Source: an uncultured Gemmatimonadales bacterium (GTDB taxonomy: Bacteria; Gemmatimonadota; Gemmatimonadetes; Longimicrobiales; RSA9). From it: a stretch of DNA of 64,000 nucleotides. The notes under the pieces are model-generated. The model saw nothing but the letters and a program-made list of their open reading frames with translations. It had not been told where the DNA came from and made no database searches. The DNA lies in the NCBI GenBank assembly GCA_963786235.1, contig CAWAYJ010000017.1, forward strand, positions 245,855 to 309,854, in the 5' to 3' direction. The position numbers were made by a program, and so were the translations under genes. Each line of letters starts with the position of its first letter. The stretch's first letter is position 1. Positions 11,207 to 57,941 of the stretch are shown here, one piece after another.

Positions 11207-12316
11207 TCAGCGAATGAGCCGCAGAGTCAGGATCTGGACGGACATGTAGCCATCAGCGTCTTCATGGATTGCCGTGAGTCGACCGTCGTCCAGGAATGCC
11301 TGAGCAACCGAGTTGGGCAGGGACAGGCGCTGGTGGACAATCACTTCCCCTGTTGATGGATCCAGCACACTAATGATCGCGTCAAAGCTGGCGGCGAGCC
11401 GCGCCGGACTGAAGTAGTCCCGAGGCAGGGGGGATCCGGGTTCGACGGGGCGGAATGGATCCGGTTTGGAAGGATCCTGCAGTACCGTCGCCACCCATAG
11501 CAGCCCGGTAGCGGAATCCTGCCAGAGTGATCGCGCCCGTGTCAGAGGCTCAGCCGACTCCGATTTGGCAAACACGCCTCCCAGATGGCGGGCCCAGCCC
11601 GGATCCCATTTCAACGTGCTTTGGTGGCGACCATCCAGACTCCACAGCGAGAACTCCATCGGTGAATCAACCAACCAGACCTCCGACAGACTCCTGGCAG
11701 TGGCCACGTCCGTAATGCCCGGCGAAGTCGTGATGCCGTCACCGAGGGCCACGACAAAACGCCCGGAATGAAGCTCATAGACGCGAATTTCGTGACGGTA
11801 ACTTCCCTCCGCTTGCCGCAGCACTTCCGGTACCGCCACCAAGCTGTCGCCGACGGCCGTGATATCAGCGGGTGATGAAGGAATACCGCGGACCACCCGT
11901 TGAAAGTGCCCAGCCGGATCGAAAACATGGATCGCGCCACGGAGATCCTGGATCAGGATGTCACCGGATCGTGTCGTCGCGACCTTCATCGCCTGAGAAA
12001 GCTCCCCGGGGCCATTGCCCGACCGACCCAAGGTTCCCAACAGGACGCCGGCGGAGTCATAGGTGAGCGCGCCCGCCGTCGGCATGAACGGAGATACGAC
12101 GTAGAATTCCCCGCTACCTCCAGCCGCAACATTGCTCAACCCCGCTATGCCGACGCTGTCCGAGCGCGAACCGAGAATCACGCGGCTACGGACCCTGACT
12201 TCGCACGTTCCACACGATGGCACTCCCGACACGCGTATGGCCACGGGCAACTGAGCGGCAAGGCTTCCAGCCGATAGAACTAGCAGGCCGACAGCCTTGA
12301 AGGCTGCATCCATCAT
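11207..12316 (-). CDS. NHL-like 6-bladed beta-propeller protein, secreted (paralog 1 of 9)
   Basis: Signal MMDAAFKAVGLLVLSAGSLAAQ and the GRSGNGPGEL motif. The C-terminal strand ..SVQILTLRLIR is shared with the paralogs. Its start overlaps the stop of 12313..12837 as ATGA. Confidence 0.75.
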   Translation of the reverse strand: MMDAAFKAVGLLVLSAGSLAAQLPVAIRVSGVPSCGTCEVRVRSRVILGSRSDSVGIAGLSNVAAGGSGEFYVVSPFMPTAGALTYDSAGVLLGTLGRSGNGPGELSQAMKVATTRSGDILIQDLRGAIHVFDPAGHFQRVVRGIPSSPADITAVGDSLVAVPEVLRQAEGSYRHEIRVYELHSGRFVVALGDGITTSPGITDVATARSLSEVWLVDSPMEFSLWSLDGRHQSTLKWDPGWARHLGGVFAKSESAEPLTRARSLWQDSATGLLWVATVLQDPSKPDPFRPVEPGSPLPRDYFSPARLAASFDAIISVLDPSTGEVIVHQRLSLPNSVAQAFLDDGRLTAIHEDADGYMSVQILTLRLIR

Positions 12317-12837
12317 TCGCGAATCCACTCGGCCGCTGCCCGTTGTGCCAATGTCTGTCCCAACCACCTGGATACATGCCGATCAAGGTCGATCTGGACG
12401 GTGGCACCTCCGCAGGTACGTAGGTCCAGCAGTGCGCGCGCCTCATCGAAATCCGCTCGACCATCCTCGACATACGTGGCAAGAGCAACGATATCGCCAC
12501 CCTTGACGGCGGACGACACTTCCGCCAGCGTTTGCCCGCAGTTCGCGGCCGGACAGTTTCCTTCGTGCGGCACCAGAGGATCATAGCAGTAATTCTCGCT
12601 GGCGTCGCACACTCGGCAGCCGGGACTCCGGGATGGCTCGTCGCAACCGTCCTCGCCGTGCCACCAGTGCGCCGGTCTGCCGAAGTAGTAGCCCTCAGAA
12701 CAATTCGCACAGACCGAGTAGCCTGGCTCGCGCCCCAGCACCTGCTGGGCATGAACTCTGTTGGCGCCGCAGACCAGGACTGGGACCAGCGGCGCGAGGG
12801 AGACGAGTGTACGCTTGACTGGGTGCATCATTCTCAC
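12313..12837 (-). CDS. Secreted Cys/His-rich protein, family member A
   Basis: Signal ...VCGANRVHAQQ. Motifs: CANC, HWWHGEDGC, CRVC. The C-terminal domain has a single Cys (LDLRTCGGATVQIDLD). The architecture matches 30007, 53784 and 54514. Confidence 0.65.
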   Translation of the reverse strand: MRMMHPVKRTLVSLAPLVPVLVCGANRVHAQQVLGREPGYSVCANCSEGYYFGRPAHWWHGEDGCDEPSRSPGCRVCDASENYCYDPLVPHEGNCPAANCGQTLAEVSSAVKGGDIVALATYVEDGRADFDEARALLDLRTCGGATVQIDLDRHVSRWLGQTLAQRAAAEWIRE

Positions 12838-13042: not shown

Positions 13043-13834
13043 TCACCAACGTGGCCGCATCAGCGCAGCGAGCCCCTCGGCAAGGCTGGTGCGGCCAACC
13101 AGCGCGGGAGACAACTGCCGCCTCCCGTGACTGGATTGTCGGAGGAGGCGCGCCGAGTCGGCGCCCGGACATGCGCCGATCAGCCGGAGCGCGGTACCCT
13201 TTAGCATCTGCGGGTCCGCGTCCGCATGGTTGCCCAGTGCGGCCCAGGACGATGCGTCGGGGAACGCGTCCAGAGCCCACAGCAGTACCATGGCATCCAG
13301 GAAGAACCTGGGTGTTATCCCGGACGCGAAATCTCGTGCGAACCACCGCTCGAGCGTCCGGACGGTCGTGGCTACGGCTCGAGCCCACGCCGCAACCGTG
13401 CGTATCGGTGGATCTGTGCCGGCCGCCCCGAGCAGAGCCGCCGTCGTTCGTTTCGAACAGACCACACTACGTCGGATGAAGCGGGCCATGCGGCTCCGGA
13501 GGCTGTCCCACGGTGCTTGCACGGCCTTCGTCAATTCGGCACGCGCGTGGCGAAACCACACGATCGCGTCGGCGAGGTTGGGTGCCACGATCGCGTTCTC
13601 GCCCTCCAACCTCGTGACCAGCACGAAACGCGTCCATGGATGGGCGCTCCGCAAGGCGCGCAGCTCGGGAGCGCCCGGCGCCTCGGCCAGCCATTCCTGC
13701 ACGGCCACGGCGGTATCAGCCCGGCGAACGCTCTTCGCGAACGCCGGCCACTTCTCGTGAAACTCCGCCGCAACTCCGATTGCCGGCTCGACCAGGTCTC
13801 TGAACCTCGGCGGACAGTACACTGCGACTCGCAT
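13043..13834 (-). CDS. Putative transcriptional regulator: receiver-like N-domain plus AraC-like HTH
   Basis: MRVAVYCPPRF... is a paralog of 28862, 61864 and (C-terminal half only) 51864. The C-terminal segment IRTVAAWARAVATTVRTLERWFARDFASGITPRFFLDAMVLLWAL resembles the AraC HTH_18 domain. Confidence 0.6.
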   Translation of the reverse strand: MRVAVYCPPRFRDLVEPAIGVAAEFHEKWPAFAKSVRRADTAVAVQEWLAEAPGAPELRALRSAHPWTRFVLVTRLEGENAIVAPNLADAIVWFRHARAELTKAVQAPWDSLRSRMARFIRRSVVCSKRTTAALLGAAGTDPPIRTVAAWARAVATTVRTLERWFARDFASGITPRFFLDAMVLLWALDAFPDASSWAALGNHADADPQMLKGTALRLIGACPGADSARLLRQSSHGRRQLSPALVGRTSLAEGLAALMRPRW

Positions 13835-20495: not shown

Positions 20496-21065
20496 ATGGA
20501 GAATGATATCATGGCGACGAAGGCGTCAGGACGGTTCGTGCTGCGGCTGGAGCCGGGGTTGCATGCGGCGTTGCGGCGGGCGGCGGCGGCGGCGGGCGTG
20601 TCGCTCAACGAGTACTGCGCGCGGAAGCTGTCGGCGCCGGGTTCGGATGCGACGGGCGCGGCGGGTGCGATCGTGGCACGTGCGGCGGAAACGGTCGGGG
20701 ACGGCCTTGTCGGGGTTGTGGCGTTCGGCTCGTGGGCGCGCGGCGAGGAGCGGTCGGACTCGGACCTGGACATCCTGATCGTGGTGGATCGGCGCGTGAA
20801 GTTGAATCGTTCGGTCTACCGCGGCTGGGATTCCGGGGACCTGGAGGTGGGCGGGCTGCGGGTGGAGCCGCACATCGTGCATCTGCCGGAGCCATCGGAT
20901 CGGCCGTCGTCGTTGTGGCTGGAGGTGGCGGTGGACGGTGTGGTGCTGTTCGAGCGAGGGCTGGAGGTTTCGCGGCATCTGGCGCGGGTCCGGTCGTTCA
21001 TCGCGGAGGGTGGGGCGCGGCGGAAGTGGTCGCACGGTCAGCCGTACTGGGTCGAGGCGGCGTGA
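20496..21065 (+). CDS. RHH/HicB-like domain fused to a minimal nucleotidyltransferase (MNT) domain
   Basis: The N-terminus GRFVLRLEPGLHAALRRAAAAAGVSLNEYC resembles HicB/Arc-like antitoxins. It is followed by the MNT motif GSWARGEERSDSDLDILIVVD. The start may instead be ATG 20511. Confidence 0.7.
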   Translation: MENDIMATKASGRFVLRLEPGLHAALRRAAAAAGVSLNEYCARKLSAPGSDATGAAGAIVARAAETVGDGLVGVVAFGSWARGEERSDSDLDILIVVDRRVKLNRSVYRGWDSGDLEVGGLRVEPHIVHLPEPSDRPSSLWLEVAVDGVVLFERGLEVSRHLARVRSFIAEGGARRKWSHGQPYWVEAA

Positions 21066-21484
21066 TGCGGAACCCGGCGCTGGCGCGCGACCACATGCGG
21101 CGGGCATCGGCGCGGCTTCGCGCGCTGGACGTTCTGTACGAGGCGGAGAGCTGGGCCGACGTAGTCCGCGAATCGCAGGAAGTCGTGGAGCTTACGCTCA
21201 AGGCGTTGCTGCGTGTCGCGGGCGTTGAACCGCCGCGCAGCCACGACGTATCGGACGTTCTGCTCACGGAACGCGAGCGGCTGCCGGACCCGGTGCGGAC
21301 CCACGTCGAGAAACTGGCGGAAGCGTCGCGGCAGCTCCGCCGGGACCGCGAGCTGGCGTTCTACGGCGCGGAGGATCTGACGCCGTCGGGCTTCTACGCG
21401 AAGGCGGATGCCGATCGTGCGCGATCGAGCGCGAGGATGGCGGTGGAGCTGGTCGCGCCGCACGTGGCTTCGCCGGACTCATGA
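21065..21484 (+). CDS. HEPN domain protein, partner of the MNT
   Basis: The start overlaps the MNT stop by 1 nt (TGATG). The protein is helical, with ...LRRDRELAFYG... typical of PF05168-type HEPN domains. Confidence 0.7.
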   Translation: MRNPALARDHMRRASARLRALDVLYEAESWADVVRESQEVVELTLKALLRVAGVEPPRSHDVSDVLLTERERLPDPVRTHVEKLAEASRQLRRDRELAFYGAEDLTPSGFYAKADADRARSSARMAVELVAPHVASPDS

Positions 21485-21712: not shown

Positions 21713-22052
21713 CGGCCGCTGCCCACTCGCAGGTAGTTACAGGTCGACTACCGCCCGGCTCGTGAAGGTCATCGGTGGAGTGGATGGTTGGGTGGCGAAG
21801 ATCGTCAAGACGCGTACAGGCGACCAGTAGGATGGAGCAAACGGCCAGCTCGGATCAGTACCTCGATACATTGTCGCCTGAGGCATAGATCGTCGGGCGT
21901 CCCTGGCAACCATGATAAGGTCGTCGTGCGGACGACGAGCACAAGCTGCCCGATCCGCTCGCGGTACGGCGCCGTGGGCTTGTTGAGCTTTACCGGTTGC
22001 GGCCAAGCCATGCGGCCGCAGCCGACGTCGTTGTTCTGTCCCGATCGGACGA

Positions 22053-22229
22053 TCAGTCACAACAGGGGATTGGCGGATCGCCCATTCCACAGCCGGGCGA
22101 GACGCAGGCGATTTCGCCGTTGTCGAATCCAAACTTCTTCGTGCCCGACTCACCCGCCATCACTGTTGCTGCCGTGATGGCAACCGCGACTACAGCGGCC
22201 ACGATTGATCCTGCGATCCCTCTCCTCAT
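22053..22229 (-). CDS. Small secreted Cys-rich peptide, 58 aa; not in the ORF track
   Basis: My own translation: MRRGIAGSIVAAVVAVAITAATVMAGESGTKKFGFDNGEIACVSPGCGMGDPPIPCCD. A GAGGAGGG SD lies just upstream. It sits 35 nt downstream of the thioredoxin-like gene and shares the C-x-PGC...CCD pattern with 34793..34993. Confidence 0.55.
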   Translation of the reverse strand: MRRGIAGSIVAAVVAVAITAATVMAGESGTKKFGFDNGEIACVSPGCGMGDPPIPCCD

Positions 22230-22264
22230 CCAGCCCTCCTCTCAGGTGATTGTTGCCCGCACGG

Positions 22265-22780
22265 TCAGCGCCCGGTTCTGGCCATCGGGTCCAAGCTCAC
22301 GTCCAGAAGCTGCACCACAGAGTCACGCACTAGAGCAAGCCTCGCTGCATTTCCATCGAGCTGCGTGATCAGGATGGCCTTATCTGCGAGATTTCGACGC
22401 AGCCGCTCCACGCCCGGATCCGATGCAAGCGGCAACTGTACCTTCTCCCGACGAAGGAACAAGCAAACGGCCTGTGTGTCCTCCACGGCTGTAAGCACAA
22501 CGGCGATCTGCCCACCCCGTCGTTTCTCCAGCTCGATCTCTCTCAAGAGACGACCCACGTTCCAGCATTGGTAGCACGTTTCAGCCGTCACAACGATGAT
22601 TTTCCGAGGAAAGTTGGCATTCCCCGCATGGCCGCAACCGTTTCCGGCGAGATCCGCTCGGAGCACGGACCCCAAGGATTCTGCCACAGCACTTGGAAGA
22701 TCATCTTTCGGCTCGGAGTTAGCCACCAGGGCCAGCGCACCGGCCCCGAGGATTGCGGGAACGAAATGCCACCTACTCAC
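22265..22780 (-). CDS. Thioredoxin-fold CxxC protein, exported (paralog of 34215..34709)
   Basis: N-terminal hydrophobic segment WHFVPAILGAGALALVANS. The motif IIVVTAETCYQCWNVG aligns with ILVVTKEQCLGCANVG. The GTG start at 22780 overlaps the propeller stop by 8 nt. Confidence 0.6.
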   Translation of the reverse strand: MSRWHFVPAILGAGALALVANSEPKDDLPSAVAESLGSVLRADLAGNGCGHAGNANFPRKIIVVTAETCYQCWNVGRLLREIELEKRRGGQIAVVLTAVEDTQAVCLFLRREKVQLPLASDPGVERLRRNLADKAILITQLDGNAARLALVRDSVVQLLDVSLDPMARTGR

Positions 22781-23855: not shown

Positions 23856-24173
23856 CTGGCGGAACACCGGTGTGTGGGCAGACGAATCACGTAGTCCGCC
23901 TTCAGGGATAGTATAAGGCACGTTGTCCAACTGGACATTATCTTGAGCCGACTCGAACGTCAAGCACTGCATTTCCGCACATTGTCTGCGGGACTGTGCG
24001 TATTCTTCTGTAGTATTTTGTCGATTCTGCGCATACAGGTTCGCAGGGTCGGTCTATGCCTCAACCGACGCCGGGTCGCGCAGCCTCTGGGCGAAATCGG
24101 TGATCGTGCTGCCATGATGGCCTTTCGGATGTGGTAGCCGTCAAACGACGTCGTTGGATCGGCATCGGCGCTC

Positions 24174-24975: not shown

Positions 24976-27402
24976 ATGGATAACAGCCGGGTAATCCGCC
25001 TCGAGCTCCTCGGCCCGGTCCGCCTGCTTGCCGCTGACGGACGAAGCCTTGATGCCGTCGTGCGGCAGCCGAAGCGCTTGGCGATTCTGACGTATCTGGT
25101 GGTTCACGACGGCTTCGTACGCAGGGACACTCTGCTTGCGCTCGGCTGGCCTGAATCCTCGGATCGGGCGGCGCGCCGTGCTCTGAATCAGACCGTCCAT
25201 TTCCTGCGATCGATGCTGGGACCCGATGCCATCGAACGCCGAGGCTCTGGGGAGGTGGCGGTCTCGCGGCAGTGGGTATCGAGCGACATCGGGGATCTCC
25301 ACCGGTCCGCCCAGGAAGGACGTCTCGGCGACGCGATCGCTCTCTATCGCGGGGACCTCCTGCAGGGTGTGCACGTCACGGATTCCGTCGAGCTCTCGCA
25401 ATGGCTCGATACGGCCCGCGACCGGTTCCGGCGGGAAGCTGTCGAGGCGGCCTGCAGGCACGCGGAGGATCTGACCGGCTCGGGCCGGTTCAAGGCCGCC
25501 GAACAGGCAGCAAGGAAAGCGCTGGACATCGAGCCCACCAGTGAGTTGGCCGTCCAGGTCTTGGTGCGGGCACTCCTGCAAACGGGGGCACGAGCGGACG
25601 CGCTCAAGGCCCTGAGGGAATTCCGCGACCGCCTGGAATCGGAGTACGGGATCGAGCCATCGGCTGAGACCGTGCGCATGGTGGAAGCGGCCAGCGAGAC
25701 AGGACCGCCAGGTGAGGCGATTCCAGAGCCGGAGTCGAATCCGATCGAGAACACCGCAGAGGACGCGCCGAACCCACCCGCGGAGCCGCTGGCGGGTCCA
25801 CCGAAGCAGCGCCCAAGTCGACTGCTCCGGAGGCTGGCAGGTTTCGCGATTCTTCTGATTTCGGCTCTGCTCCTTGGCCGCGCCGCGATCCGGCACGGGA
25901 CCGAGGCTACACCGAGTGCGCGAGCCCACCCCGCGAATCGCGTCGCCGTCTTGTACCTCCAACCTCGCGGTGATCTCGGGGATCTGAACTACCTGCCTGA
26001 TGCACTCACCGAAGCGGTTATCGACCAACTCAGCACGACCGATGGGCTCGAGGTCATTGGCCAGTCTGATGTCCGGTGGTTTCAGAGAGACCCGCAACCA
26101 GCCGCCGCCATCGCGGAGGCTTTGAACGTCGGCACCGTCGTGGTCGGCACGCTGTCGCGGCAGGGCGATGACGTACGAACGAGAGTACAGATCGTAGGAG
26201 CCGACGACGGTGCTGTCCAGAGCGTGATGGATATCACCCGTTCGGCTGTGGCCCCGATGGACCTGGTCGCGTTTTGTGTCGACTCGATCACCGCTGGAAT
26301 CCGAGGAGCGCTCGGGCGTTCGGTCAATATGACACAGTGGCATGCCGGCACGAATGACGAGCGAGTCTGGGAACTCGTGCAACGTGCGGGCGCTTTGCGC
26401 CGCACTGCGGTCTCTCTCGCTACGCATGGGGAGCTTGGCAACGTGCCACGCGTTTATGCGGCCGCGGACTCGCTGCTTTCCGTGGCGTCGTCGGCAGACC
26501 GTCGCTGGAGTGTTCCCGATCTGCTTCGAGCGCAACTCGCAGAGGAATCGGCGATCTACTGCATGGCCGTCCCGGAATGCGGCCCACAAACGAGCCTGGA
26601 ATCGGTCGAGCGAGGCATGAGCTTCGCACGCGAGGCTATCGCCCGGCAGCCGGACCATTCCGAGAGTCATACAGAGCTTGGCACACTCTTCTTTCTGGCG
26701 TCGCAGTTGGTTGATTCCACCGCCGCGACCGTGTATCTCGACTCCGCGAAGGAGGCGTTCCTTGCGGCCATCGCTCAAGCCCCGGGGAATGCGATGGCGT
26801 GGAGCCGGTTGTCGGCTGTTCAGTATTCCCGGGGTGAATTCGCGACTGCATACGCTTCGGCGCGGGAGGCCTATCGAGCCGACGCCTACCTATCGAACCG
26901 CGCGGAGGTCTTGGGACGTTTGTTTCTGACGAGTCTGCACCTCGGAGCGGACGACGATGCACGGTACTGGTGCCGGGAGATCGAAGCGACGTCCGGAGGT
27001 ACTTGGCCGGTGGCCTTCTGCCAACTTTGCCTGCTTGCATTTGTGGACTCGGTGATGCCGGATCCCGACTCGGCTTGGAGTCTCGTGCGTGCGCACGCGC
27101 GCGTAGATCTTTCGGCCAAGGTCATGATGCCGAGGTTGGAGATGCTGGTGGCGGCCGTTCTGGGACGGGTCGGAATGACCGATAGCGCGCGGGTCCTGAT
27201 CCGGAGCGGCCTCCGGGATGCCCGGGGCGATCCGGATTTCGATCTTTTCCGTGCCGGCGCCCTGGTTGCCATCGGTGCCCGGGACTCCGCCGTTACTCTG
27301 CTCGAGCAGTATGTCCATGCAAACCCCGCCCAGCGGTCGGCCGTTCTCCATTGGCGCTGGTTTGAGGCGCTCGGGCGCAGCCCCCTCGAAGATTCCCGCT
27401 AG
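24976..27402 (+). CDS. Membrane-anchored SARP/BTAD-family regulator with periplasmic and TPR regions
   Basis: N-terminal wHTH plus BTAD (IRLELLGPVRLLAADGRSL...ALYRGDLLQG...LESEYGIEPSAET), one TM segment (FAILLISALLLG), then a TolB_N-like segment and a TPR-like C-terminus. 808 aa. Confidence 0.8.
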   Translation: MDNSRVIRLELLGPVRLLAADGRSLDAVVRQPKRLAILTYLVVHDGFVRRDTLLALGWPESSDRAARRALNQTVHFLRSMLGPDAIERRGSGEVAVSRQWVSSDIGDLHRSAQEGRLGDAIALYRGDLLQGVHVTDSVELSQWLDTARDRFRREAVEAACRHAEDLTGSGRFKAAEQAARKALDIEPTSELAVQVLVRALLQTGARADALKALREFRDRLESEYGIEPSAETVRMVEAASETGPPGEAIPEPESNPIENTAEDAPNPPAEPLAGPPKQRPSRLLRRLAGFAILLISALLLGRAAIRHGTEATPSARAHPANRVAVLYLQPRGDLGDLNYLPDALTEAVIDQLSTTDGLEVIGQSDVRWFQRDPQPAAAIAEALNVGTVVVGTLSRQGDDVRTRVQIVGADDGAVQSVMDITRSAVAPMDLVAFCVDSITAGIRGALGRSVNMTQWHAGTNDERVWELVQRAGALRRTAVSLATHGELGNVPRVYAAADSLLSVASSADRRWSVPDLLRAQLAEESAIYCMAVPECGPQTSLESVERGMSFAREAIARQPDHSESHTELGTLFFLASQLVDSTAATVYLDSAKEAFLAAIAQAPGNAMAWSRLSAVQYSRGEFATAYASAREAYRADAYLSNRAEVLGRLFLTSLHLGADDDARYWCREIEATSGGTWPVAFCQLCLLAFVDSVMPDPDSAWSLVRAHARVDLSAKVMMPRLEMLVAAVLGRVGMTDSARVLIRSGLRDARGDPDFDLFRAGALVAIGARDSAVTLLEQYVHANPAQRSAVLHWRWFEALGRSPLEDSR

Positions 27403-27559: not shown

Positions 27560-27715
27560 ATGCGAACTCGTCGTGCGCAGGTGCTCGCGCTGTTTGCCGT
27601 CCTAGCCATCGGCCTCCTTTCGGGCTGCAGGAAGGATATCCTGGAGCCACCGCCGTCGCCCGAGTCGGGTCCGTGCTACTGGATCGGCACTCAGTACATC
27701 TGTATTCCCGGCTGA
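27560..27715 (+). CDS. Small lipoprotein-like ORF, 51 aa; not in the ORF track
   Basis: My own translation: MRTRRAQVLALFAVLAIGLLSGCRKDILEPPPSPESGPCYWIGTQYICIPG. Lipobox LLSGC, GGAG 6 nt upstream, and the stop lies 4 nt before the C1-like gene. A conserved paralog is at 60571..60723. Confidence 0.6.
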   Translation: MRTRRAQVLALFAVLAIGLLSGCRKDILEPPPSPESGPCYWIGTQYICIPG

Positions 27716-27719
27716 AGCA

Positions 27720-28751
27720 ATGATCCGGTTTCAATCGGGCGAATCAAGCCGGCCCATGGACCAGGGTCTTTCTGGGCGGCCGGCCGAGTCTCGGCGCATT
27801 CGCGACTCGTCCCCCAGGGATCCAGCGAAGGCGATACCAGTACGGCGTCTGGCGGCGCGCGGGATGGGCTGGGTACGGGACATTCCGAGCATCCGGGATT
27901 ACGGGCCGTTCCATGAGTACGTGTCCGTCAAGAAGGCGCAGCTGGGACAGAGCGACTCCATTCTCGACATGCTCGCGGAAACCGATGCTCTGGACTCCGA
28001 GCTGGATCTCCCAACTTCCGTTGACCTCCGTCAGTGGTTTCCGCCGGCAGACGACCAAGGCCCTCTGGGATCGAGCGCGGTGCACGCCGCGATCGGGCTC
28101 CTCGCGTATTTCGAGTACCGGGCGTGGGGCCGGCATGTGGATCTATCAAGCCGCTTCCTGTACAAGACCGCGCGGAAGCTCATGCAGGTTCACGGAGATG
28201 CCGGAGCGAGTCCCCGGAGCGTGCTGGACGCTCTCGTTCGGTTTGGGGCGCCACCGGAGCGACATTGGCCTCCCAATGTTGCGGCCTTCGACGAGGAACC
28301 ACCGGCGTTCTGCTACGGATACGCGCAGGACTACCAGGCGCTTTCCTACTACAGACTCGACTCCGGCAGGACGAACGGCGAGGAGCTGCTCGAGCGGATC
28401 AAGCGTCACCTGAACTCAGGCGTCCCGCTTCTTTTCGGCTTCACGGTGTTCCGGTCGATCCAGCAGGACGGCAATGTCCCGTTTCCCAACTCGGACGAGC
28501 AAGTGCTCGGAGGGCAGGTCGTTGTCGCGCTCGGCTATGACGACCGGAAGCTCATACGGAATCCGGCGCCCGTCGGACCAGAGACCCGCGGAGCCATTCT
28601 GATCCGGAGTTCCTGGGGGGAGGAGTGGGGGGAGCACGGCTACGGGTGGCTGCCATATCAATATGTACTTGGCGGGCTTGCCGCTGATTGGTGGTCGCTG
28701 ATTAGGTACGAGTGGATGGAGACGGGGGAGTTCCAGCGGCAAGACCAATGA
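27720..28751 (+). CDS. Papain-like (peptidase C1) homolog with substituted catalytic residues; likely a non-peptidase homolog
   Basis: Family motifs are present: GWVRDIPSIRDY, DLRQWFPPADDQGPLGSS, GYDD, SSWGEEWGEHGYGWLPY. The canonical GSC is GSS (S119) and the canonical GGH is GGQ (Q266). No signal peptide. Confidence 0.8.
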   Translation: MIRFQSGESSRPMDQGLSGRPAESRRIRDSSPRDPAKAIPVRRLAARGMGWVRDIPSIRDYGPFHEYVSVKKAQLGQSDSILDMLAETDALDSELDLPTSVDLRQWFPPADDQGPLGSSAVHAAIGLLAYFEYRAWGRHVDLSSRFLYKTARKLMQVHGDAGASPRSVLDALVRFGAPPERHWPPNVAAFDEEPPAFCYGYAQDYQALSYYRLDSGRTNGEELLERIKRHLNSGVPLLFGFTVFRSIQQDGNVPFPNSDEQVLGGQVVVALGYDDRKLIRNPAPVGPETRGAILIRSSWGEEWGEHGYGWLPYQYVLGGLAADWWSLIRYEWMETGEFQRQDQ

Positions 28752-28861: not shown

Positions 28862-29695
28862 ATGCGAGTTGCAGTCTATTGTCCACGGGGACTCAGCGAG
28901 TCGATCAAGCCAGCACTCGGATTCCCTGCAGAGTTCCACGATTCGTGGTCAGCGTTTGAGGAAGCGGTTCGCAGCGCAGATTGTGGCGTGTCCGTCATCG
29001 AGTGGTTGAGGGAATCGCCCGGAGCACCGGAATTGAAGGGGCTTCGCAACTCCCACCCGCAGACCGGCTTGGTCTTGGTGACAAGATTCGACCGTGAGAA
29101 CGGAGGCCTTCTCCCAGACACGGCCGATAGGTTCGTGTGGCTCGCAGAGGTCGAAGAGCACTTGAATCCTGCGGTAACGGAAGCGGGGCGCGGGCTGTGT
29201 GCGCGCTTGGAACGATACATCCGGATCCAGCTACCTCGTTCTGGAGCCGGGCGCCTCGGCAACATCCGCGACGCACTGCTGGTGCTTATCGATGTCGACC
29301 CGCCGGCAAGGACCGTGAAGGAGTGGTGCGCTCTCCGAGCCGTGTCATGTTCTGTTTCGACGCTACAAAAGGGGTTCGGAAACACATTCCAGTCCGGTAT
29401 CACACCCTTGTTCATCCTGGAAGTCGTGCGCTTGTACAAAGCGCTCGACGAATTCCCGAATGCCAGCTCGTGGAGGAAGCTTGCTTTGGAGGCAGGACCG
29501 AAGTGGTATGAAGACGGAAAACTCAGTCCCAAAACGCTGTCCAACACGGCTGCCCGGCTACTTGGGCAGGTCCGCGTACCCGCAGGGACCGGGAGACACA
29601 ATGGCGTATCGATGTGGGGCCCGCCGTTGGCCGAGAGACCCAGCTCCATAGACAGGCGCTCGTTGTTACACGCGCTCGTGGGGTTGCTTTGCTAG
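28862..29695 (+). CDS. Receiver-like plus AraC-like HTH regulator (paralog of 13043 and 61864)
   Basis: MRVAVYCPRGLSESIKP...VSVIEWL...LVLVTR... followed by ARTVKEWCALRAVSCSVSTLQKGFGNTFQSGITPLFILEVVRLYKAL. Confidence 0.6.
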   Translation: MRVAVYCPRGLSESIKPALGFPAEFHDSWSAFEEAVRSADCGVSVIEWLRESPGAPELKGLRNSHPQTGLVLVTRFDRENGGLLPDTADRFVWLAEVEEHLNPAVTEAGRGLCARLERYIRIQLPRSGAGRLGNIRDALLVLIDVDPPARTVKEWCALRAVSCSVSTLQKGFGNTFQSGITPLFILEVVRLYKALDEFPNASSWRKLALEAGPKWYEDGKLSPKTLSNTAARLLGQVRVPAGTGRHNGVSMWGPPLAERPSSIDRRSLLHALVGLLC

Positions 29696-33043: not shown

Positions 33044-34192
33044 ATGCAAGCCGCTACGCACCAGCGCCGGTCAAAGTGCCGAGGCGTTCTCACCTTCCGG
33101 TTCGGTCCGATCACTTGCGCTTTGCTGGTTGTCGGAGCGATTGGCTGTGCAGAACCACCGGCGGCGTCGCAGGTCGCATCGCGGACAGCAGACGTGCAAT
33201 CCGCGTCCGAGGACTCGCTTCCGGCCGTCGAAATCGAAGCGCTTATTGCATTTGACTCAGCATACATGGCAATCGACTCGTTCACGCTCAAGCAAGACGA
33301 CGAGAACGTGGTTGCAAGAGTTGCCAATGTGGTTATCGATGAACACCGACATGTCGTCTTCGTAGTTGACGCCTCCGAGCGAAACGTGAAGGAATTCGAC
33401 TTCGGCGGCAGGTTGATTAAGGTGTACGGAAGAGCCGGTGCGGGCCCTGGCGAATTCCGGACCCCAGAGGACGGAGCCATCGACCCGCTTGGGCGGCTTG
33501 TGGTGTTCGACGGACTAGCGAATCGTGTAACGGTGTTCCTGCCAGACAGCGCGCCGCGAGTTGTGCAGGTACATGGCATGACAAAGGTACGCGACTTCAC
33601 GATCAGTGCGTCAGGGACATATCTCTTTGTGGCGGCACTGGCGAGCAATGAAGACGTCCTCTTTGAGACGAGTGAGGATGGCACGATCCTTCAGGAAGCC
33701 CTGCCGTTGGCGCACGTCGTCCCGGAAGGTGAAACCGACGGCCCACTGTGGACCTTTCCGCGTACGTTCTTTCTCAGTGCGCGCCAGGACACGGCATTAG
33801 TAATCTGCAGTCTATTGCCTCGCATTTGGAGAGTATCCCTCGCCGATCATTCAGTTGTCCATCAGGATGTCGTGTTTCCGGGGTATTTACCCCCACGGAG
33901 CCCTCCGCGAGATAAGAGCACCAGCACAGCGGATGTCGTACAGTGGTTCTATTCCCGACACCTGACCGCATTCCTAACAACGACGAGGAAAGAGGTCTTT
34001 TGGCCATTCATGCATGGAGAAGTCATGCAGAACAATCCGATGGTTGTTGTGCATCAAGGACCCGACGGGAAATGGGAAGCCCTCGACGGGGCACCAATCA
34101 TATTGAAGCCATTTGCTGACGGGCGTCTGCTCGTCTACAGGGACCCGACGGCGGATGCGCCGCGCTTTGTCATTTATCGGAGGCGACCATGA
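33044..34192 (+). CDS. NHL-like 6-bladed beta-propeller lipoprotein (paralog 5)
   Basis: Lipobox VVGAIGC, the motif GRAGAGPGEFRTP, and the C-terminal ..PRFVIYRRRP. Confidence 0.75.
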   Translation: MQAATHQRRSKCRGVLTFRFGPITCALLVVGAIGCAEPPAASQVASRTADVQSASEDSLPAVEIEALIAFDSAYMAIDSFTLKQDDENVVARVANVVIDEHRHVVFVVDASERNVKEFDFGGRLIKVYGRAGAGPGEFRTPEDGAIDPLGRLVVFDGLANRVTVFLPDSAPRVVQVHGMTKVRDFTISASGTYLFVAALASNEDVLFETSEDGTILQEALPLAHVVPEGETDGPLWTFPRTFFLSARQDTALVICSLLPRIWRVSLADHSVVHQDVVFPGYLPPRSPPRDKSTSTADVVQWFYSRHLTAFLTTTRKEVFWPFMHGEVMQNNPMVVVHQGPDGKWEALDGAPIILKPFADGRLLVYRDPTADAPRFVIYRRRP

Positions 34193-34214
34193 GGGGGCCG
34201 TTGTCTTGGTTGTG

Positions 34215-34709
34215 GTGAAACAGGTGACGGTTGTTGGAGTGCTTGTCGGGCAAATTGCAGGTGCGGCTTGTGCTCGCGAGCCGGAGGGATCCGGGACCCT
34301 CGTTGCGAGTGCGCTTGCGGCTGTCGGCCGCCATGGCGCACATCCAGTTTGTGGTGGACGGGCTCGCTTGGATGTGCATGGACGGCCGATCCTAGTCGTG
34401 ACAAAGGAGCAGTGCCTAGGGTGTGCGAACGTCGGCTTCGAAGCGCGGAAATGGCTCCGAACGGACGACGGCAAAGTCCTTGGACTTACACTTGCGACGC
34501 CGGCTGGCGACACGGCTATGGTATGCCGGTACGCCGCCATGGAACGTCTAGGCGTTCCAGTTGTTGCGCTAAGCGGAATGCCGGAGGCTGCGGTGCATTT
34601 TGCTGAGCGACATCTTGTGCTTATATCGGGGACTGATGGCGGCGTTCGGTGGGATACTGCCCAAACGGCGGATTCGATATTTGAACGGCTTGGAAGGATT
34701 GCTCACTGA
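34215..34709 (+). CDS. Thioredoxin-fold CxxC protein, exported (paralog of 22265..22780)
   Basis: GTG start; alternatives are 34206 and 34212. Signal/lipobox-like VVGVLVGQIAGAAC, then ILVVTKEQCLGCANVG. It lies directly downstream of propeller 33044..34192. Confidence 0.6.
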   Translation: MKQVTVVGVLVGQIAGAACAREPEGSGTLVASALAAVGRHGAHPVCGGRARLDVHGRPILVVTKEQCLGCANVGFEARKWLRTDDGKVLGLTLATPAGDTAMVCRYAAMERLGVPVVALSGMPEAAVHFAERHLVLISGTDGGVRWDTAQTADSIFERLGRIAH

Positions 34710-34792
34710 GAGTTGTAGGCGTGGGGAAGAGGTTGCCAGCTAAGCCAACGCGGGTGGCATCCGGCATTGAGACGAACGAAGGGAGGCTGACG

Positions 34793-34993
34793 ATGAAGAA
34801 GATTGTTCTCTCTGTTGTGTTTGCCGGGCTTGCTGCGCTCGGAGCAATGAGCTATTCGGCAGGCAGAGTGGCTGCGGCTGACGAGTGGCCTTTGGATCAC
34901 CCATTCGGCCGCGATTGTGAGCCGGGTTGTTACACGGTTTGTGGACCGCTCTGCTTTTGCTGCGATCAGAATATCTGTGGGCAGGGCTGTTAG
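34793..34993 (+). CDS. Small secreted Cys-rich peptide, 66 aa
   Basis: MKKIVLSVVFAGLAALGAMSYSAGRVAAADEWPLDHPFGRDCEPGCYTVCGPLCFCCDQNICGQGC. GGGAGG lies 6 nt upstream. There are eight Cys in the last 25 residues. The start is the internal Met of track ORF 34721..34993. Confidence 0.65.
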   Translation: MKKIVLSVVFAGLAALGAMSYSAGRVAAADEWPLDHPFGRDCEPGCYTVCGPLCFCCDQNICGQGC

Positions 34994-35029: not shown

Positions 35030-35341
35030 ATAGGATGCACCGAATGCTCCCCGCGTTGGCTGGTATGACGTTCGACCGCCCGCACGTAGTCACGGTTGCG
35101 AATAGCCGCCGGTGTAGCCGGCGGCCTGAATCTCCTCGAGGAGTCGGACCGAGGACAGCTCCGGGTACGCCTCGAGTCGGTGGCCGATGATCGCCTTGTA
35201 GGGATCCAGCTTCGTCGGCCGCGGCGGCCAGGACCGGTAGCGCGGCGCCTCGTCCAGATCCCGGTCGAGTTCGCCGGCCGCGATCCAGCGGGTGATCGTC
35301 CGCCGGTCGATGCCCAGTTGCCGGGCGATCGCTCGCTTCTG
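35030..35341 (-). mobile_element. istA: IS21-family istA 5' remnant (HTH region); truncated and frameshifted
   Basis: The minus strand encodes ..KRAIARQLGIDRRTITRWIAAGELDRD...LDPYKAIIGHRLEAYPELSSVRLLEEIQAAGYTGGYS, then a stop. RDYVRAVER continues in another frame. An in-frame stop directly precedes QKRAIA. Confidence 0.7.
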
Positions 35342-49830: not shown

Positions 49831-50390
49831 GGCGGCCGCAGCGCGAGGACTGGACGCGCGGCTTTCAGGACGGCCTCGAAGGCAACGACTTCGATCCCTG
49901 ATCGCTTGGACCCATAATGCCCGTGCTGGCCCGACGTTCCTATTGACACTTCGGATTGTGCGGGCACATCTTGCTGTCGCTGCTGGTGTTGTCTCCCCAG
50001 GACCCCAGTCTCCAGAGTGTCTGCCCACTGCAAGCAGACGCACGCCAAGTTCCCTGCAACGGGCTTCTGCATAGAGCAGGAGCCAGCAAACCGGTAGCTG
50101 AGTCATGGAGGCATTCTCACAACCGACCCTGCCTGACCACACTGCCCGGGATGCGCCCTGGCAGAGCGCTGTCCACGTGCGCGAGCGTCCGGCGGTGTGC
50201 GCACGTCGTTGTGTGGCGCGAATATTCCCCAACACGACCAAGCCCCGGCGACAACGCCTGAACCCGGCCCGGCCAAAGCACCTTCGGAGGTGCGCGGCAC
50301 GCGCCCGGCAACCGACCGATGGGGGGACCGATGTCCAGCGGAACGATGAGACCAATGAGCGCCGCCTGCGTGGCAGGACGCTACAACTTG

Positions 50391-51554
50391 ATGAGGCCGC
50401 GTGGATCACTTGAATCAGCGCGTCTGCTCGCCAGGATCCTCTTCTTGATACCTGTCGCGGCAGTTGCTGCGTGCATAGGACGCGAAGGCGACGCAGCTCC
50501 CGGCGAGATCCGAGAGGACCTATGTGCCACGTGCAAGATCGTACTCGACGACGCGGTCCACATCGGGTCGTCAAACGGTTGGGCGGTGCTCTCACAATTC
50601 GCGTACTTCGGGATCGATGAACGCGGGTGGGTGGTTGTAGCGGACCCAATGTCCTATCCAAACCAAGTACTTTTCCTGAGTTCCGCTTCTGATACGATCC
50701 CTACGCCTATCGGTCGGGAAGGGGCTGGCCCTGGCAAACTGCTGCGCATCACGGGGTTATGGACAAGCGATCAGGGTGTCCACGTGTTCGACGGCGGCAC
50801 TGGTCGAGAGACGGTGTTTGACACAGCGGGTCAGTTTCTGAGTACCTATGTGTACAGGTTCGGGCCGATCGGCCGTCTCGGTTCGCGGATTCCCCTGGAC
50901 GGGAACCGTTTGCTGATCAACGCTACTATACGAACACCCGACAACGCGGGCTATCCTCTTCATATTCTCGACTCCGAAAGAAGAATAGAACGTTCCTTCG
51001 GAGCGGACACCGCACTCCTCCTACCCGGGTTCGTGGATTTCAATGCGCGTGCCTTGGCATGGTCCAGCGACAGTGTGCTCTGGGTTGCGAGATTCAACGA
51101 ATATCGTATCGAGAAGTGGACGTTGAGGGGGGAACACGTCCTCACTCTCATCAGACATCCAGACTGGTTCGAGCCTTGGTGGACAGTAGAAACAACGGAC
51201 TACATGGTTGCGGCGCCTCCACCGTCATTGGCATGGATTCATGAAGACAAGGAACGTCACCTACTGTGGTTGATGTTCTGGCTCGCGGATTCGGACTACC
51301 ATCCGGTGAAGAAAGCGACCGATCCGCAATCACGGATCAACAAAGTGGAGATGAACCGTTTCTTCGATACGATGGTCGAGGTGGTCGACTTGGTGACCCG
51401 CACGGTAGTTGCGCAACGACGCTTCGGTCCGCTCTTCGGGGTCGCCGGGGATGCGTTGATCTACGAGCAGTCTGAGGCCAATGATGGGTCAGCTCGCTTC
51501 GTTGGCTACACATTTCGACTTGCTGGTTATGAGGAGGGGCAACGGCAGGAATGA
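50391..51554 (+). CDS. NHL-like 6-bladed beta-propeller lipoprotein (paralog 6)
   Basis: Lipobox AAVAAC, the motif GREGAGPGKL, and the C-terminal ..ARFVGYTFRLAGY. Confidence 0.75.
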   Translation: MRPRGSLESARLLARILFLIPVAAVAACIGREGDAAPGEIREDLCATCKIVLDDAVHIGSSNGWAVLSQFAYFGIDERGWVVVADPMSYPNQVLFLSSASDTIPTPIGREGAGPGKLLRITGLWTSDQGVHVFDGGTGRETVFDTAGQFLSTYVYRFGPIGRLGSRIPLDGNRLLINATIRTPDNAGYPLHILDSERRIERSFGADTALLLPGFVDFNARALAWSSDSVLWVARFNEYRIEKWTLRGEHVLTLIRHPDWFEPWWTVETTDYMVAAPPPSLAWIHEDKERHLLWLMFWLADSDYHPVKKATDPQSRINKVEMNRFFDTMVEVVDLVTRTVVAQRRFGPLFGVAGDALIYEQSEANDGSARFVGYTFRLAGYEEGQRQE

Positions 51555-51605
51555 GAGCGCATTGTGGTGGCGACGTTCATTAGACCGCATCAAAGGAGGC
51601 CAAAA

Positions 51606-51770
51606 ATGAAAGGCGTTTGGGCCGTTACCGCGATCGGTGCATTGGCGATTCTGGGTGTCGGTGCACTGGTCGTGTCGCCCAAGGAGGCGGATGCAAGCGT
51701 TTTGACGTGGACTCTGGAGCAAAGTTCGTGCCATTCTCAGTTGCGAATCGTGCGTGTTCCATTGCAGTAG
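51606..51770 (+). CDS. Small signal-peptide ORF, 54 aa
   Basis: MKGVWAVTAIGALAILGVGALVVSPKEADASVLTWTLEQSSCHSQLRIVRVPLQ. An AAAGGAGG SD lies upstream. The position (just after a propeller gene) and N-terminus resemble 22053 and 34793, but the tail has only one Cys. Confidence 0.4.
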   Translation: MKGVWAVTAIGALAILGVGALVVSPKEADASVLTWTLEQSSCHSQLRIVRVPLQ

Positions 51771-51863
51771 GCTTCATCAACCTACCCATCAGCCCAGCGG
51801 AGCGCCATCCTCAATCACGGGGACTTATGCAGAGCTTCCTTAGCGGGCTCCGGCAACGGCCGC

Positions 51864-52307
51864 ATGGCCAGGATTCGCGATTCTCTGCTGGTGCTTCTTC
51901 GGGCCGACCCGCCGTTTCGGACCGTGAAAGAGTGGTGCAGGGCCGTGTCGTGCTCGGTATCGACGATGGAGAAGTGGTTCTCAAGCGCGTTCGCTTCAGG
52001 GATTACGCCGCAGTTCGTCCAGGAAGCCGTGCGCTTGTACAGGGCCCTCGACGCGTTTCCGCAAGCCCGCTCGTGGACGAAGCTCGGGTGGCATGCATCG
52101 ACATGGTACGAGAACGGGCAACTCAGCCCGGAGACACTATCCGACATGGCGGCCCGGCTGCTCGGGAGGATCCGGGTACCCGATGAGATCCGGAGAAGCC
52201 GTGGCTCATCCGATCGCTGCGGCAGGTGGGACCCTCCACTCGTCGAGAAACCCGCGGACATCGATCGACGCGTGTTGTTCGACGGGCTCGTGCTGCTGCT
52301 CCGGTGA
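51864..52307 (+). CDS. AraC-like HTH half of the receiver-like regulator family; N-terminally truncated paralog, possibly a pseudogene
   Basis: FRTVKEWCRAVSCSVSTMEKWFSSAFASGITPQFVQEAVRLYRAL aligns with the C-terminal half of 28862..29695. No receiver-like part precedes it. Confidence 0.5.
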   Translation: MARIRDSLLVLLRADPPFRTVKEWCRAVSCSVSTMEKWFSSAFASGITPQFVQEAVRLYRALDAFPQARSWTKLGWHASTWYENGQLSPETLSDMAARLLGRIRVPDEIRRSRGSSDRCGRWDPPLVEKPADIDRRVLFDGLVLLLR

Positions 52308-52666
52308 GATGACACCGAGCCACGTCGGAGCCGATCGAATGGGAGTGGATTTGATTTCGGCGTTTGCCGGCGATTCTTCCGCGTTTCCCGGTTGGAGCCG
52401 GGGCGCGACCGGGCGTATCTTTGAATCAGTCGGCGGATCGGGACGACATCGATTGATCCGTCGCAGCTGCCGTCGAACCGCATGTTGTGGCGAGAGTTCG
52501 GGAGTTGCCTGACGGTGGCGAGAAGGCGGAGGAGCCCCAAGAATGCACAGGGGGGTAGGTGCCAGTAGGGGGACGTTCCTTTCCGAGGAGTCCGCTGCCA
52601 GCATCGTGTTGGAACCACAACCGGGAACGCAGACGTTCATTGGCGCAACTCAACCTAGAGGCGTGC

Positions 52667-53761
52667 ATGGCAAAATGTGCGGTCGGGGTGGGACGACACA
52701 GAAGCCCGCCAGGGCAATGGCGTGTATTCGCCGTGCTCACAGTGTTTGCTTCCGCGTGCGGTACCGACACTGGCGGAGTCCGAACGACGCGACTCGCATT
52801 CCAATCCGAGGCCCGAGGTGACACAACGGACATGCAGATGCCGTTCAAGGCGGAATCGGGCGCCGATGGCCAAGCGTACGTGAGTACGGGGACGCTGTCG
52901 GGGTTGGTGATGGTCTTCGACTCTCTTGGCCACCTCGTGGGGACGGTCGGTGGCCGGGGTCCTGGCCCCGGCGAGTTCAGGCAGCCTACGTTCGTTGTCA
53001 GCAAGGCTGATTCGGTGATGGTCGGAGATCTCGACGGAGACATATCGTTGTTCGATTCCACTGGTCGATTCATTCGAATGCTACAATGCAAAGTGGTCGG
53101 CAACCCTGATGTCTTGCTACTGCGAGGAGACACAATGGTGGTGGCAACGCATATTCCAACGCCGCAGCGCTTTGGTCTGCCGCTGCATGTTGTGGCGCCT
53201 GACTGCACTATTGTGCGCTCGTTCGGCAGTGAGGATCGCACGGTGGATCCGAAGTTCAGCAAGGCGTTGCTAAGGCCGCTTGCGCAAGAGAACGACACGT
53301 CGTTCTGGGTTGCCAGACCCGATCGATATGTTCTGGAGCTATGGTCTATCACGGGCAGGAAGTTGAAGGAACTCGCCATCGAGCGAGAGTGGTACGAGCC
53401 GATGACGATGGATGGCAGAGGCTATGGTGTGGATCGTCCTGGCAGCATCGTGATGAGCTTGCACAGGACAAGGGCCGGGTACCTGACAGTTCTTCTACAA
53501 CGGGCACGTTCCGATTGGAAACAACGAGACATGCACAATGCAAGTGCGGAGAAACGCTATTTCGCCCTTGCGGACTGGCTGGAATACGTAGAGCAGATTG
53601 TAGAGGTGGTCGATACGGCGTCTGGGAAGCTGGTCGGGAGCACGAGCAACACTACTGGGGACTACCTGCTGCGCTTCCTAAGCGACGGACGGCTCTTTGG
53701 AACTCGCGCGAAGGAAGATGGGTTGCAGGTTCCGGTGTTTTGGCGCGTTGCGGTTAACTGA
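52667..53761 (+). CDS. NHL-like 6-bladed beta-propeller lipoprotein (paralog 7)
   Basis: Lipobox VFASAC, the motif GGRGPGPGEFRQP, and the C-terminal ..LQVPVFWRVAVN. Confidence 0.75.
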   Translation: MAKCAVGVGRHRSPPGQWRVFAVLTVFASACGTDTGGVRTTRLAFQSEARGDTTDMQMPFKAESGADGQAYVSTGTLSGLVMVFDSLGHLVGTVGGRGPGPGEFRQPTFVVSKADSVMVGDLDGDISLFDSTGRFIRMLQCKVVGNPDVLLLRGDTMVVATHIPTPQRFGLPLHVVAPDCTIVRSFGSEDRTVDPKFSKALLRPLAQENDTSFWVARPDRYVLELWSITGRKLKELAIEREWYEPMTMDGRGYGVDRPGSIVMSLHRTRAGYLTVLLQRARSDWKQRDMHNASAEKRYFALADWLEYVEQIVEVVDTASGKLVGSTSNTTGDYLLRFLSDGRLFGTRAKEDGLQVPVFWRVAVN

Positions 53762-53783
53762 CAATCAAACGGGTGAGGTTGTG

Positions 53784-54320: not shown

Positions 54321-54513
54321 ACATTCGCGCTTACGTTAGCAGCACTGACGCTTGCGATATTCTCATGGATCGGAACGGCCGGCAGGTTGCGCGAAGGAAC
54401 GTGGCTTGGAGGCTCGCGAATGTGTTGGCGGGTTGCGGTTAAGCTAAGCGCCGTCGCCGGCCGGTTTCGCCCCGTGTGGCACACTCCAACTACCCAGATG
54501 AGGAGGCGAACGA

Positions 54514-54996: not shown

Positions 54997-55112
54997 CTTG
55001 CCCGGAGCCATTCTGAATCCTGGATCAATCGGGACGACCTCGTCGGTTGCCGTCGTGGAGGCGGTGAGGTGCCACAGTGACATAGACGTTGAACTACGGA
55101 AGGGAGTTTACG

Positions 55113-57925: not shown

Positions 57926-57941
57926 GGGGCCACATGGAGAG

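Follow-up and report, generated by a model that had tools for sequence, protein, structure and literature searches.

A short cysteine-rich frame as a probable secreted-peptide gene in a propeller cassette of an uncultured Gemmatimonadales bacterium

Genes for small secreted peptides are systematically missed or left as "hypothetical", and a stretch of 64,000 nucleotides from an uncultured Gemmatimonadales bacterium (contig CAWAYJ010000017.1, positions 245,855 to 309,854; here called the window) poses this problem in a concrete form. On its minus strand lies a reading frame of 177 nt, pepA, to which a preliminary description had drawn attention. The question is whether pepA is a gene at all and, if it is, what its product does. 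Our analysis makes it very likely that the gene is real. The frame and its translation signal are these:

22053-22229, minus strand: pepA, 58 codons plus stop, placed by its translation, gene calls on four contigs, a scan for small open reading frames (ORFs) and a cysteine motif
22234-22241, minus strand: Shine-Dalgarno (SD) site of pepA, GAGGAGGG, followed by the spacer CTGG (4 nt) and the ATG

Re-translation from the ATG at 22229 to the TGA at 22053-22055 gives MRRGIAGSIVAAVVAVAITAATVMAGESGTKKFGFDNGEIACVSPGCGMGDPPIPCCD followed by the stop, 58 amino acids (aa) that match the preliminary description exactly, and the ribosome-binding site that it placed upstream is present, 4 bases from the ATG. 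Residues 1-25 (22155-22229) begin with MRR, continue with a hydrophobic stretch of about 21 residues and end in V-M-A|G; by inspection they look like a Sec signal peptide, with recognisable n, h and c regions and a site compatible with the -3/-1 rule. Residues 26-58 (22056-22154) make up a predicted mature peptide of 33 aa with four cysteines and the end ...CVSPGCGMGDPPIPCCD. This part also carries a hairpin-like motif, G-x-x-G-T...F-x-F-D-N-G, which resembles the turn of a propeller blade (D/N-G, beta-turn-like). The frame had been called unlisted, which holds for the ORF track with its 60-aa cutoff but not more widely, since public gene callers already call pepA. The source contig (ENA ERZ25039500 contig_11097, with 99.87% identity to the window) carries it as a called gene, as do three Logan contigs, and an NCBI metagenome-assembled genome (MAG) labelled Rhodothermales bacterium includes a "hypothetical protein" of 49 aa that uses a later start.

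The surroundings of the frame also speak for a gene. Upstream on the same strand lie two larger genes:

22265-22780, minus strand: p171A, 171 aa, with an N-terminal hydrophobic signal or anchor and the CxxC core IIVVTAETCYQCWNVG; called as a gene on Logan contigs, codon log-likelihood ratio (LLR) +32 bits
22773-23972, minus strand: prop1, an NHL/DUF5128 propeller, likely start ATG at 23855, lipobox ...SIGLAC|S

pepA starts 35 nt 3' of p171A, and p171A overlaps the end of prop1 by 8 nt, which is an operon-like arrangement. pepA is the last cistron of a three-gene, presumably periplasmic cassette (cassette A) made up of a propeller lipoprotein, a CxxC protein and the peptide. An inverted repeat of 20 nt (85%), with arms at 21873-21892 and 24050-24069, flanks the whole of cassette A and could be due to chance at such a length.

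About 12 kb away, at 33044-34993 on the plus strand, a second cassette (cassette B) has the same three positions in mirror orientation, with a propeller, a diverged CxxC paralog and a 66-aa cysteine-rich signal-peptide ORF:

33044-34192, plus strand: prop3, the first gene of cassette B and the closest prop1 paralog, lipobox ...GAIGC, Pfam DUF5128
34155-34709, plus strand: p171B, a diverged p171A paralog with the core ILVVTKEQCLGCANVG; start ATG at 34155 (Logan call) or TTG at 34206
34793-34993, plus strand: pepB, 66 aa, MKKIVLSVVFAGLAALGAMSYSAGRVAAADEWPLDHPFGRDCEPGCYTVCGPLCFCCDQNICGQGC and stop, with a signal peptide and an eight-cysteine tail ...CEPGCYTVCGPLCFCCDQNICGQGC

prop1 and prop3 are each other's closest paralogs (BLASTP, 23% identity over 278 aa, E=2.9e-14), and p171A finds 34383-34697 on the plus strand, between prop3 and pepB, in a tblastn search of the window (28-29% identity, E=1.6e-6); a 184-aa gene is called 5' of pepB on Logan contig L008. 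pepB lies 83 nt 3' of p171B, has a basic, hydrophobic N-terminus and the SD sequence GGGAGG 6 nt 5' of its ATG, and is called as a gene on two Logan contigs. The proposal that 34793..34993 mirrors pepA in position and motif is thus borne out: pepB follows a p171A paralog and the closest paralog of prop1, and the cysteine motif is common to both peptides. The identity of 23-29% between the cassette proteins implies that the duplication is old and that all three positions have been retained. pepB is itself flanked by a 22-nt inverted repeat (86% complementary; 34743-34764 and 35040-35061) that could be chance at such a length. The window has about 68% GC, falling to about 60% at 22-36 kb and 50-64 kb, and pepA and pepB stand at the two edges of the first low-GC island. 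Between the cassettes are a LuxR-type helix-turn-helix gene, a gene for an 808-aa BTAD/TPR regulator, a papain-family peptidase gene with a lipobox mini-ORF, a third propeller gene and unknown genes.

A related locus was retrieved from metagenomes with a relaxed back-translated pattern of the CxxC core, VVT.E.C..C.NVG. It lies on an independent 12.4-kb contig, Ga0315281_10011084 (L005), and includes probable tandem peptide genes:

L005 11673-12140: first CxxC protein
L005 10879-11659, minus strand: a tandem array of three mini-ORFs (51-62 aa) with a CxxC gene on either side; two of the mini-ORFs end in Cys-Cys-stop

A 155-aa CxxC protein of L005 is 48% identical over 62 aa to p171B (E=9e-13) and 32% identical over 92 aa to p171A (E=4e-9). 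The mini-ORFs, which stand immediately 3' of its gene, have hydrophobic N-termini starting with MKR or MRR and cysteine-rich tails that end in ...TCNVDGTYTCSRGCPNGYCC, ...YNADGTVNCTCSCLSPTAPCC and ...YMVNGYCVTICSHGCDCSVLDPVIIR, and 3' of them stand a second CxxC protein and three DUF5128-like propellers (E=1e-10 to 1e-5 to the window propellers). The preliminary description had named a lack of homologous small ORFs in syntenic positions as the case against its frame; such ORFs exist, as cysteine-rich signal-peptide mini-ORFs follow CxxC homologs both in cassette B and in L005.

The peptides also have a cysteine framework in common. In four of the five (pepA, pepB, L5pep1 and L5pep2) the arrangement C-x2-3-[GS]-C...P-x3-C-C follows a D/N-G turn. 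Searched as C.{2,3}[GS]C.{0,10}P.{3}CC in six-frame translations of the window and L005, the motif is confined to those four ORFs, and shuffled versions of the window contain it 0.05 times on average. Cysteine counts are mostly even (4, 8, 6 and 4; one peptide has 5). Several points limit this grouping: the motif was defined post hoc, pepA and pepB match each other at a BLASTP E-value of 0.098, and profile hidden Markov models built from the peptides of one locus (window or L005) do not retrieve those of the other. Such formal comparisons have little power here, and the models have none in either direction. To these must be added that L005 is the only related locus in all collections searched, that its gene order is unlike that of the window cassettes and that its first CxxC protein has no obvious signal peptide. 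Because the peptides show no significant similarity to one another, the argument for a family rests on the conserved context and the rare shared framework.

Could pepA nevertheless be an untranslated 177-nt frame in the 3' untranslated region of p171A or the intergenic DNA after it, with features that GC-rich DNA produced by accident? We searched all six frames of the window for ORFs of 30-110 aa that combine K or R among their first 8 residues with a strongly hydrophobic 12-mer, an SD-like site and two or more cysteines. Just four in 64 kb qualified, namely pepA, pepB and two lipobox mini-ORFs beside papain-like protease genes, and all four occupy conserved positions beside paralogous genes. 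In the window GGAGG-N4-9-ATG leads into an ORF of 50 aa or more 20 times, pepA and pepB included, as against 4.6 times in composition-preserving shuffles, an excess which implies that the signal marks real genes here. Indeed the strongest SD sites of their neighbourhoods belong to the small signal-peptide ORFs, in L005 as in the two window clusters. When codon usage is modelled from the island genes, the longer ORFs overlapping pepA score -10 bits (21737-22153, minus strand), -23 bits (21788-22177, plus strand) and +3.5 bits (21997-22368, plus strand), which gives them the appearance of shadow ORFs, as the preliminary description had it.

The same codon model provides part of the case for a chance frame. 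The LLR of pepA is +3.6 bits, which ranks at the 96th percentile among non-coding frames and at the 4th among coding windows, and the antisense frame over its span scores slightly higher; the coding-potential comparison that had been suggested is therefore ambiguous, placing pepA above most non-coding frames but low among coding windows. Such a result is unsurprising for only 58 codons of signal peptide and Cys/Gly/Pro-rich tail. Also on that side, there are no homologs beyond its own cluster among 1.84 billion representative proteins, and no single-nucleotide polymorphism falls within the ORF among strains about 99.9% identical, so that no selection signal is seen; the strains are too similar for this comparison to be informative. 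Set against the strong, correctly spaced SD site, the small number of ORFs that pass the scan, and the equivalent ORFs that end cassette B and follow the L005 CxxC homolog with a rare cysteine motif in common, a spurious ORF appears unlikely.

The length of the hydrophobic stretch bears on a different alternative. The preliminary description had claimed a signal peptide with a cysteine-rich tail; the tail is clearly there, but the signal peptide is judged by inspection, and a stretch of about 21 residues is long for an h-region and long enough for an uncleaved membrane anchor. pepA would then be a mini-protein with its N-terminus inside and a periplasmic cysteine-rich tail, and it might, for instance, partner the propeller or a membrane-bound BTAD/TPR regulator in regulation; a membrane segment is predicted in a paralog of the latter. 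In the rest of the family the h-regions are shorter, at a typical 12-17 residues, and lead into A-x-A-like sites, and V-M-A|G in pepA fits the -3/-1 rule, which together make a retained anchor highly improbable.

Directly 3' of pepA and on the same strand, a 68-aa ORF (21805-22011) has a weakly positive codon score of +2.7 bits and neither a family match nor a signal peptide. The GC hairpin 3' of pepA has no U-tract and is not significant as a terminator (z=-0.8). No Rfam family or tRNA was found at the locus, and short repeats that might be mobile-element ends look like chance.

Of the two partner genes, prop1 matches the Pfam family DUF5128 (PF17170; E=2.7e-6, 27.2 bits against a cutoff of 22.9), and prop2 and prop3 likewise score above the cutoff. 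An AF2 model of prop1 with the six window paralogs as input is mediocre (pLDDT 52, pTM 0.56), and its confident blades match NHL domains in Foldseek, among them TRIM71 (7qrx, E=2e-9), an exported protein of B. fragilis (4raa) and PAL (3fvz). We therefore read prop1 as a six-bladed NHL-type beta-propeller and, with its lipobox, as a probable lipoprotein.

For p171A, a thioredoxin-fold thiol-disulfide oxidoreductase is the assignment we infer. The motifs of the CxxC proteins are CYQC, CLGC and CLSC. Compatible with a thioredoxin or redoxin fold are the D[TS]xxVC segment, the conserved core, in which a hydrophobic beta-strand precedes the CxxC and a helix comes after it, and an [LV]P[LV] site that leads into strand-turn-strand. 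The sole PDB profile match of p171A, below threshold, is a "putative thioredoxin" (2fgx, E=0.75) with the CxxC in register, and hhalign places the CxxC protein on E. coli TrxA in register as well, at no significance; as neither alignment is significant, the fold stays a suggestion from sequence features. It is further weakened by the lack of any match of p171A in Pfam, NCBIfam and PADLOC or of a significant match to any thioredoxin family, and by an AF2 model too poor to use (pLDDT 38). A disulfide-forming role has a further point against it, in that the cassette shows no DsbB, VKOR or MauE to re-oxidise such a protein from the membrane.

No described family matches pepA, and the cassette appears to be undescribed. 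Only pepA's own cluster came back from a word-indexed search covering 5.8 billion proteins and from exhaustive phmmer against the 1.84 billion representatives, and the word-indexed search gave essentially only themselves for p171A and prop3. One weak propeller match (P0004) was set aside, its gene context being unrelated. The six-propeller alignment is too diverged to yield search patterns; neither the CxxC alignment nor a relaxed DNA pattern retrieved a locus from genome contigs or viral contigs, and prop1 found nothing in metagenome contigs. None of ten cassette and island proteins scanned matched a PADLOC model of anti-phage defence. Pfam scans gave pepA and pepB no family at E<=0.01, and the motif of NVEALA (PF14055), small proteins associated with DUF5128 propellers in Bacteroides, is absent from them; a literature search on DUF5128 and NVEALA found no paper. 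A phmmer match of mature pepA to the designed "Cake" beta-propellers in the PDB (E=4e-5) was rejected as a statistical artefact, since it sums 18 perfect repeats that contribute about 1 bit each.

If pepA is a gene, its product may follow a simple route. The 58-aa precursor would be exported by Sec, and removal of the signal peptide near Ala25|Gly26 would release an anionic product of about 33 aa. This would contain a D/N-G turn and four cysteines, two of them in the C-terminal vicinal Cys-Cys. In the periplasm the cognate CxxC protein, with its putative thioredoxin fold, could form or rearrange the disulfides of the peptide. The propeller lipoprotein would be the binding partner of the peptide, either as a scaffold together with the CxxC protein, in the manner of a split NHLRC2-like cleft between thioredoxin and NHL domains, or as a receptor or immunity protein. 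We favour this full mechanism, a disulfide peptide dependent on a cognate CxxC protein and partnered with a propeller, with some reserve, as several inferences are combined in it. By analogy, the nearest functional model for pepA would be a secreted peptide that is exported by Sec, carries disulfide bonds and has an oxidoreductase of its own, here placed in a new gene context.

Four known systems come closest to this arrangement. Bacteroidetocins (class IIf, Bacteroidetes) are four-cysteine peptides whose activity needs an adjacent thiol oxidoreductase, the proposed disulfide former, in hosts that lack general Dsb machinery, and 45.7% of such ORFs were unannotated (PMC6671954). pepA is likewise a small and often unannotated gene for an even-cysteine peptide beside a gene of putative thiol-oxidoreductase type, the mature sizes are similar (about 33-42 aa), and the lineage would be related to Bacteroidota if the MAG label Rhodothermales is right. 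Bacteroidetocins have a 15-aa double-glycine leader, an ABC transporter with a C39 peptidase and a protein with five transmembrane segments, whereas pepA, pepB and the L005 peptides have signal-peptide-type N-termini, that of pepA being Sec-like, and no double-glycine leader. No island ORF has a Pfam match to Peptidase_C39 or ABC_tran, the nearest transporter being a MacB/FtsX permease outside the island and on the other strand. The pepA cassette has a propeller gene and theirs none, there is no sequence similarity, and the CxxC protein here has no significant match to an oxidoreductase family. Bacteroidetocin identity was ruled out for want of the leader, the C39/ABC transporter and the five-segment protein.

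Sec-dependent class II bacteriocins and systems with pediocin-type accessory CxxC proteins are also comparable, with a Sec signal peptide in place of a double-glycine leader, a short disulfide-bonded mature peptide and, in some operons, an accessory thioredoxin-like protein that secures the correct disulfides. They belong to Gram-positive bacteria and come with a cognate small immunity protein, whereas the host here is diderm, so that Sec export ends in the periplasm, and no immunity-like gene is recognisable unless it is the propeller.

A likeness of another kind is offered by NHLRC2, in which a thioredoxin-like domain is fused to an NHL six-bladed propeller and a conserved cleft is thought to bind a partner; bacterial homologs are reported to have no conserved neighbours, and the function of the essential human protein is unknown (PMC6107167). 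As in NHLRC2 and SOQ1-type proteins, a thioredoxin-like module would be coupled to an NHL six-bladed propeller here, through adjacent overlapping genes. The genes are separate, though, the motif is C-[YL]-[QGS]-C and not the CC(I/V)NC of NHLRC2, and a small cysteine-rich peptide gene is a conserved neighbour. An NHLRC2-type identity was ruled out by the unfused genes and the lack of CC(I/V)NC.

A small protein that relies on a CXXC factor and joins a propeller is also known from methylamine dehydrogenase, a heavy/light-chain enzyme in which the small MauA subunit, the partner of MauB, acquires its disulfides only with the help of the thioredoxin MauD (CXXC). MauB is a seven-bladed beta-propeller, and MauA, the light chain, has about 130 aa. 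Both systems would have a beta-propeller, a periplasmic CXXC maturation factor and a small exported cysteine-rich polypeptide, and pepA might accordingly belong to a propeller enzyme of the periplasm, either as its small subunit or to carry its cofactor. The documented role of MauD, the agreement of the order propeller, CxxC protein and small secreted product with mauB, mauE, mauD, mauA, and the fact that L005 and the window clusters have roughly one small secreted product for each propeller all favour such an enzyme. MauA has six disulfides and two tryptophans that form tryptophan tryptophylquinone, a cofactor that is impossible here because pepA, with its four cysteines, has no tryptophan and pepB has one. 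The mature peptide of about 33 aa is also about four times shorter than MauA, with no sequence similarity, the propeller is of the six-bladed NHL type, and Pfam and NCBIfam scans of the island genes found no MauE or di-haem peroxidase (MauG) domain. On these grounds (no tryptophan pair, no MauE or MauG, a six-bladed NHL propeller) MauA identity was ruled out, and the wider idea of an enzyme subunit of this kind is quite unlikely.

The cysteines could also serve a metal. TlpA-type periplasmic thioredoxins reduce the cysteines of copper proteins, and a peptide with a C-terminal vicinal Cys-Cys and C-x3-4-C motifs with Pro/Gly spacers might bind Cu or Zn in the periplasm while a TlpA-like CxxC reductase keeps its thiols reduced. 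Family scans of the island, however, turned up neither a metal transporter nor a chaperone or a metal-sensing regulator, and so fast a divergence as that of the peptides would be unusual for metal sites. We consider a metal-binding role very unlikely.

The chance is just as slight that pepA is the precursor of a ribosomally synthesised and post-translationally modified peptide (RiPP). Its processing would then go beyond disulfides, to cross-links or C-terminal trimming for example, and be carried out by the propeller or by the product of a different island gene, the papain-like protease being one candidate. Tandem, hypervariable, short precursor-like ORFs beside conserved accessory genes would suit a RiPP, NHL propellers include the peptide-processing PAL, which is among the fold matches of prop1, and the island encodes a papain-family peptidase and cluster-specific regulators. 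Yet the N-terminus looks like a Sec signal peptide and not like a recognisable leader, Pfam and NCBIfam find no radical-SAM, LanB/C/M, YcaO or other class enzyme among the island genes, and the papain gene, which has a lipobox mini-ORF of its own beside it, is absent from L005. Known RiPP classes, NVEALA, PADLOC defence and an Rfam element were each ruled out as identities of pepA, no class enzyme or family match having been found.

To return to the secreted disulfide peptide with its CxxC and propeller partners, a role in inter-bacterial competition or peptide signalling would fit the numerous fast-diverging paralogs, the low-GC islands, the island-encoded regulators and the tandem peptides of L005. 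We speculate further, and only tentatively, that the three-gene unit represents a kind of peptide system not described before, present in several copies in diderm bacteria, in which a split thioredoxin/NHL machine folds or recognises a repertoire of secreted disulfide peptides (toxins or signals) and membrane BTAD/TPR, LuxR and AraC-like regulators control or sense them. Were the mechanism true, it would provide a physiological substrate class for the pairing of thioredoxin-like and NHL-propeller modules and add a Sec-dependent, propeller-associated type to the disulfide-peptide systems; were it false, pepA would still be a correctly placed small gene in a lineage-specific island. The cassette is known from one lineage and one metagenome contig, and it would link the thioredoxin-like/NHL pairing to a candidate class of substrates. 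It also offers a context rule for poorly studied lineages, namely to look 3' of CxxC genes with a linked NHL propeller for a signal-peptide mini-ORF with a strong SD site.

The window contains six propellers in all, and each cluster has its own secreted cysteine-rich products. In the second low-GC cluster (50319-56234) three DUF5128-like propellers (50319-51554, 52559-53761 and 55089-56234) are interspersed with signal-peptide ORFs, which are sp54 (51606-51770) and two cysteine-rich proteins (53697-54320 and 54514-54996); by eye the latter two appear to have a C-terminal domain in common, and BLAST gives no match between them. The CxxC gene is absent from this cluster. Elsewhere, 12313-12831 on the minus strand encodes a third, apparently secreted cysteine-rich protein of 172 aa with ...SPGCRVCD... 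and a strong SD site.

The two lipobox mini-ORFs, 27560-27715 and 60571-60723 on the plus strand, encode 51 and 50 aa that are 55% identical and end in ...C[YF]WI.[GE].QYICIPG and a stop. They stand 4-21 nt 5' of Peptidase_C1 genes (27720-28751 and 60745-61767) that are 71% identical, and they form a second conserved class of small ORFs under the 60-aa cutoff, possibly a partner or inhibitor of the protease.

Other genes of the islands are repeated as well. Beside 12313-12831, the minus-strand gene 13043-13834 is a third copy of a regulator-like family of 263-277 aa, 68% identical to 61819-62652 and 42% to 28862-29695. The BTAD/TPR gene at 24976-27402 has a paralog split into two ORFs (57924-59561 and 59601-60380, plus strand) that is 81% identical to it over the first 530 aa, which suggests a frameshift, a pseudogene or an assembly error. 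The left edge of the first island is abutted by HicB/nucleotidyltransferase and HEPN genes (20496-21484, plus strand) with the look of a toxin-antitoxin or MNT-HEPN system, and further left are AbiEii-like genes and a segmental duplication, about 9.2-11.2 kb against about 13.9-16.3 kb, whose copies are 88-97% identical.

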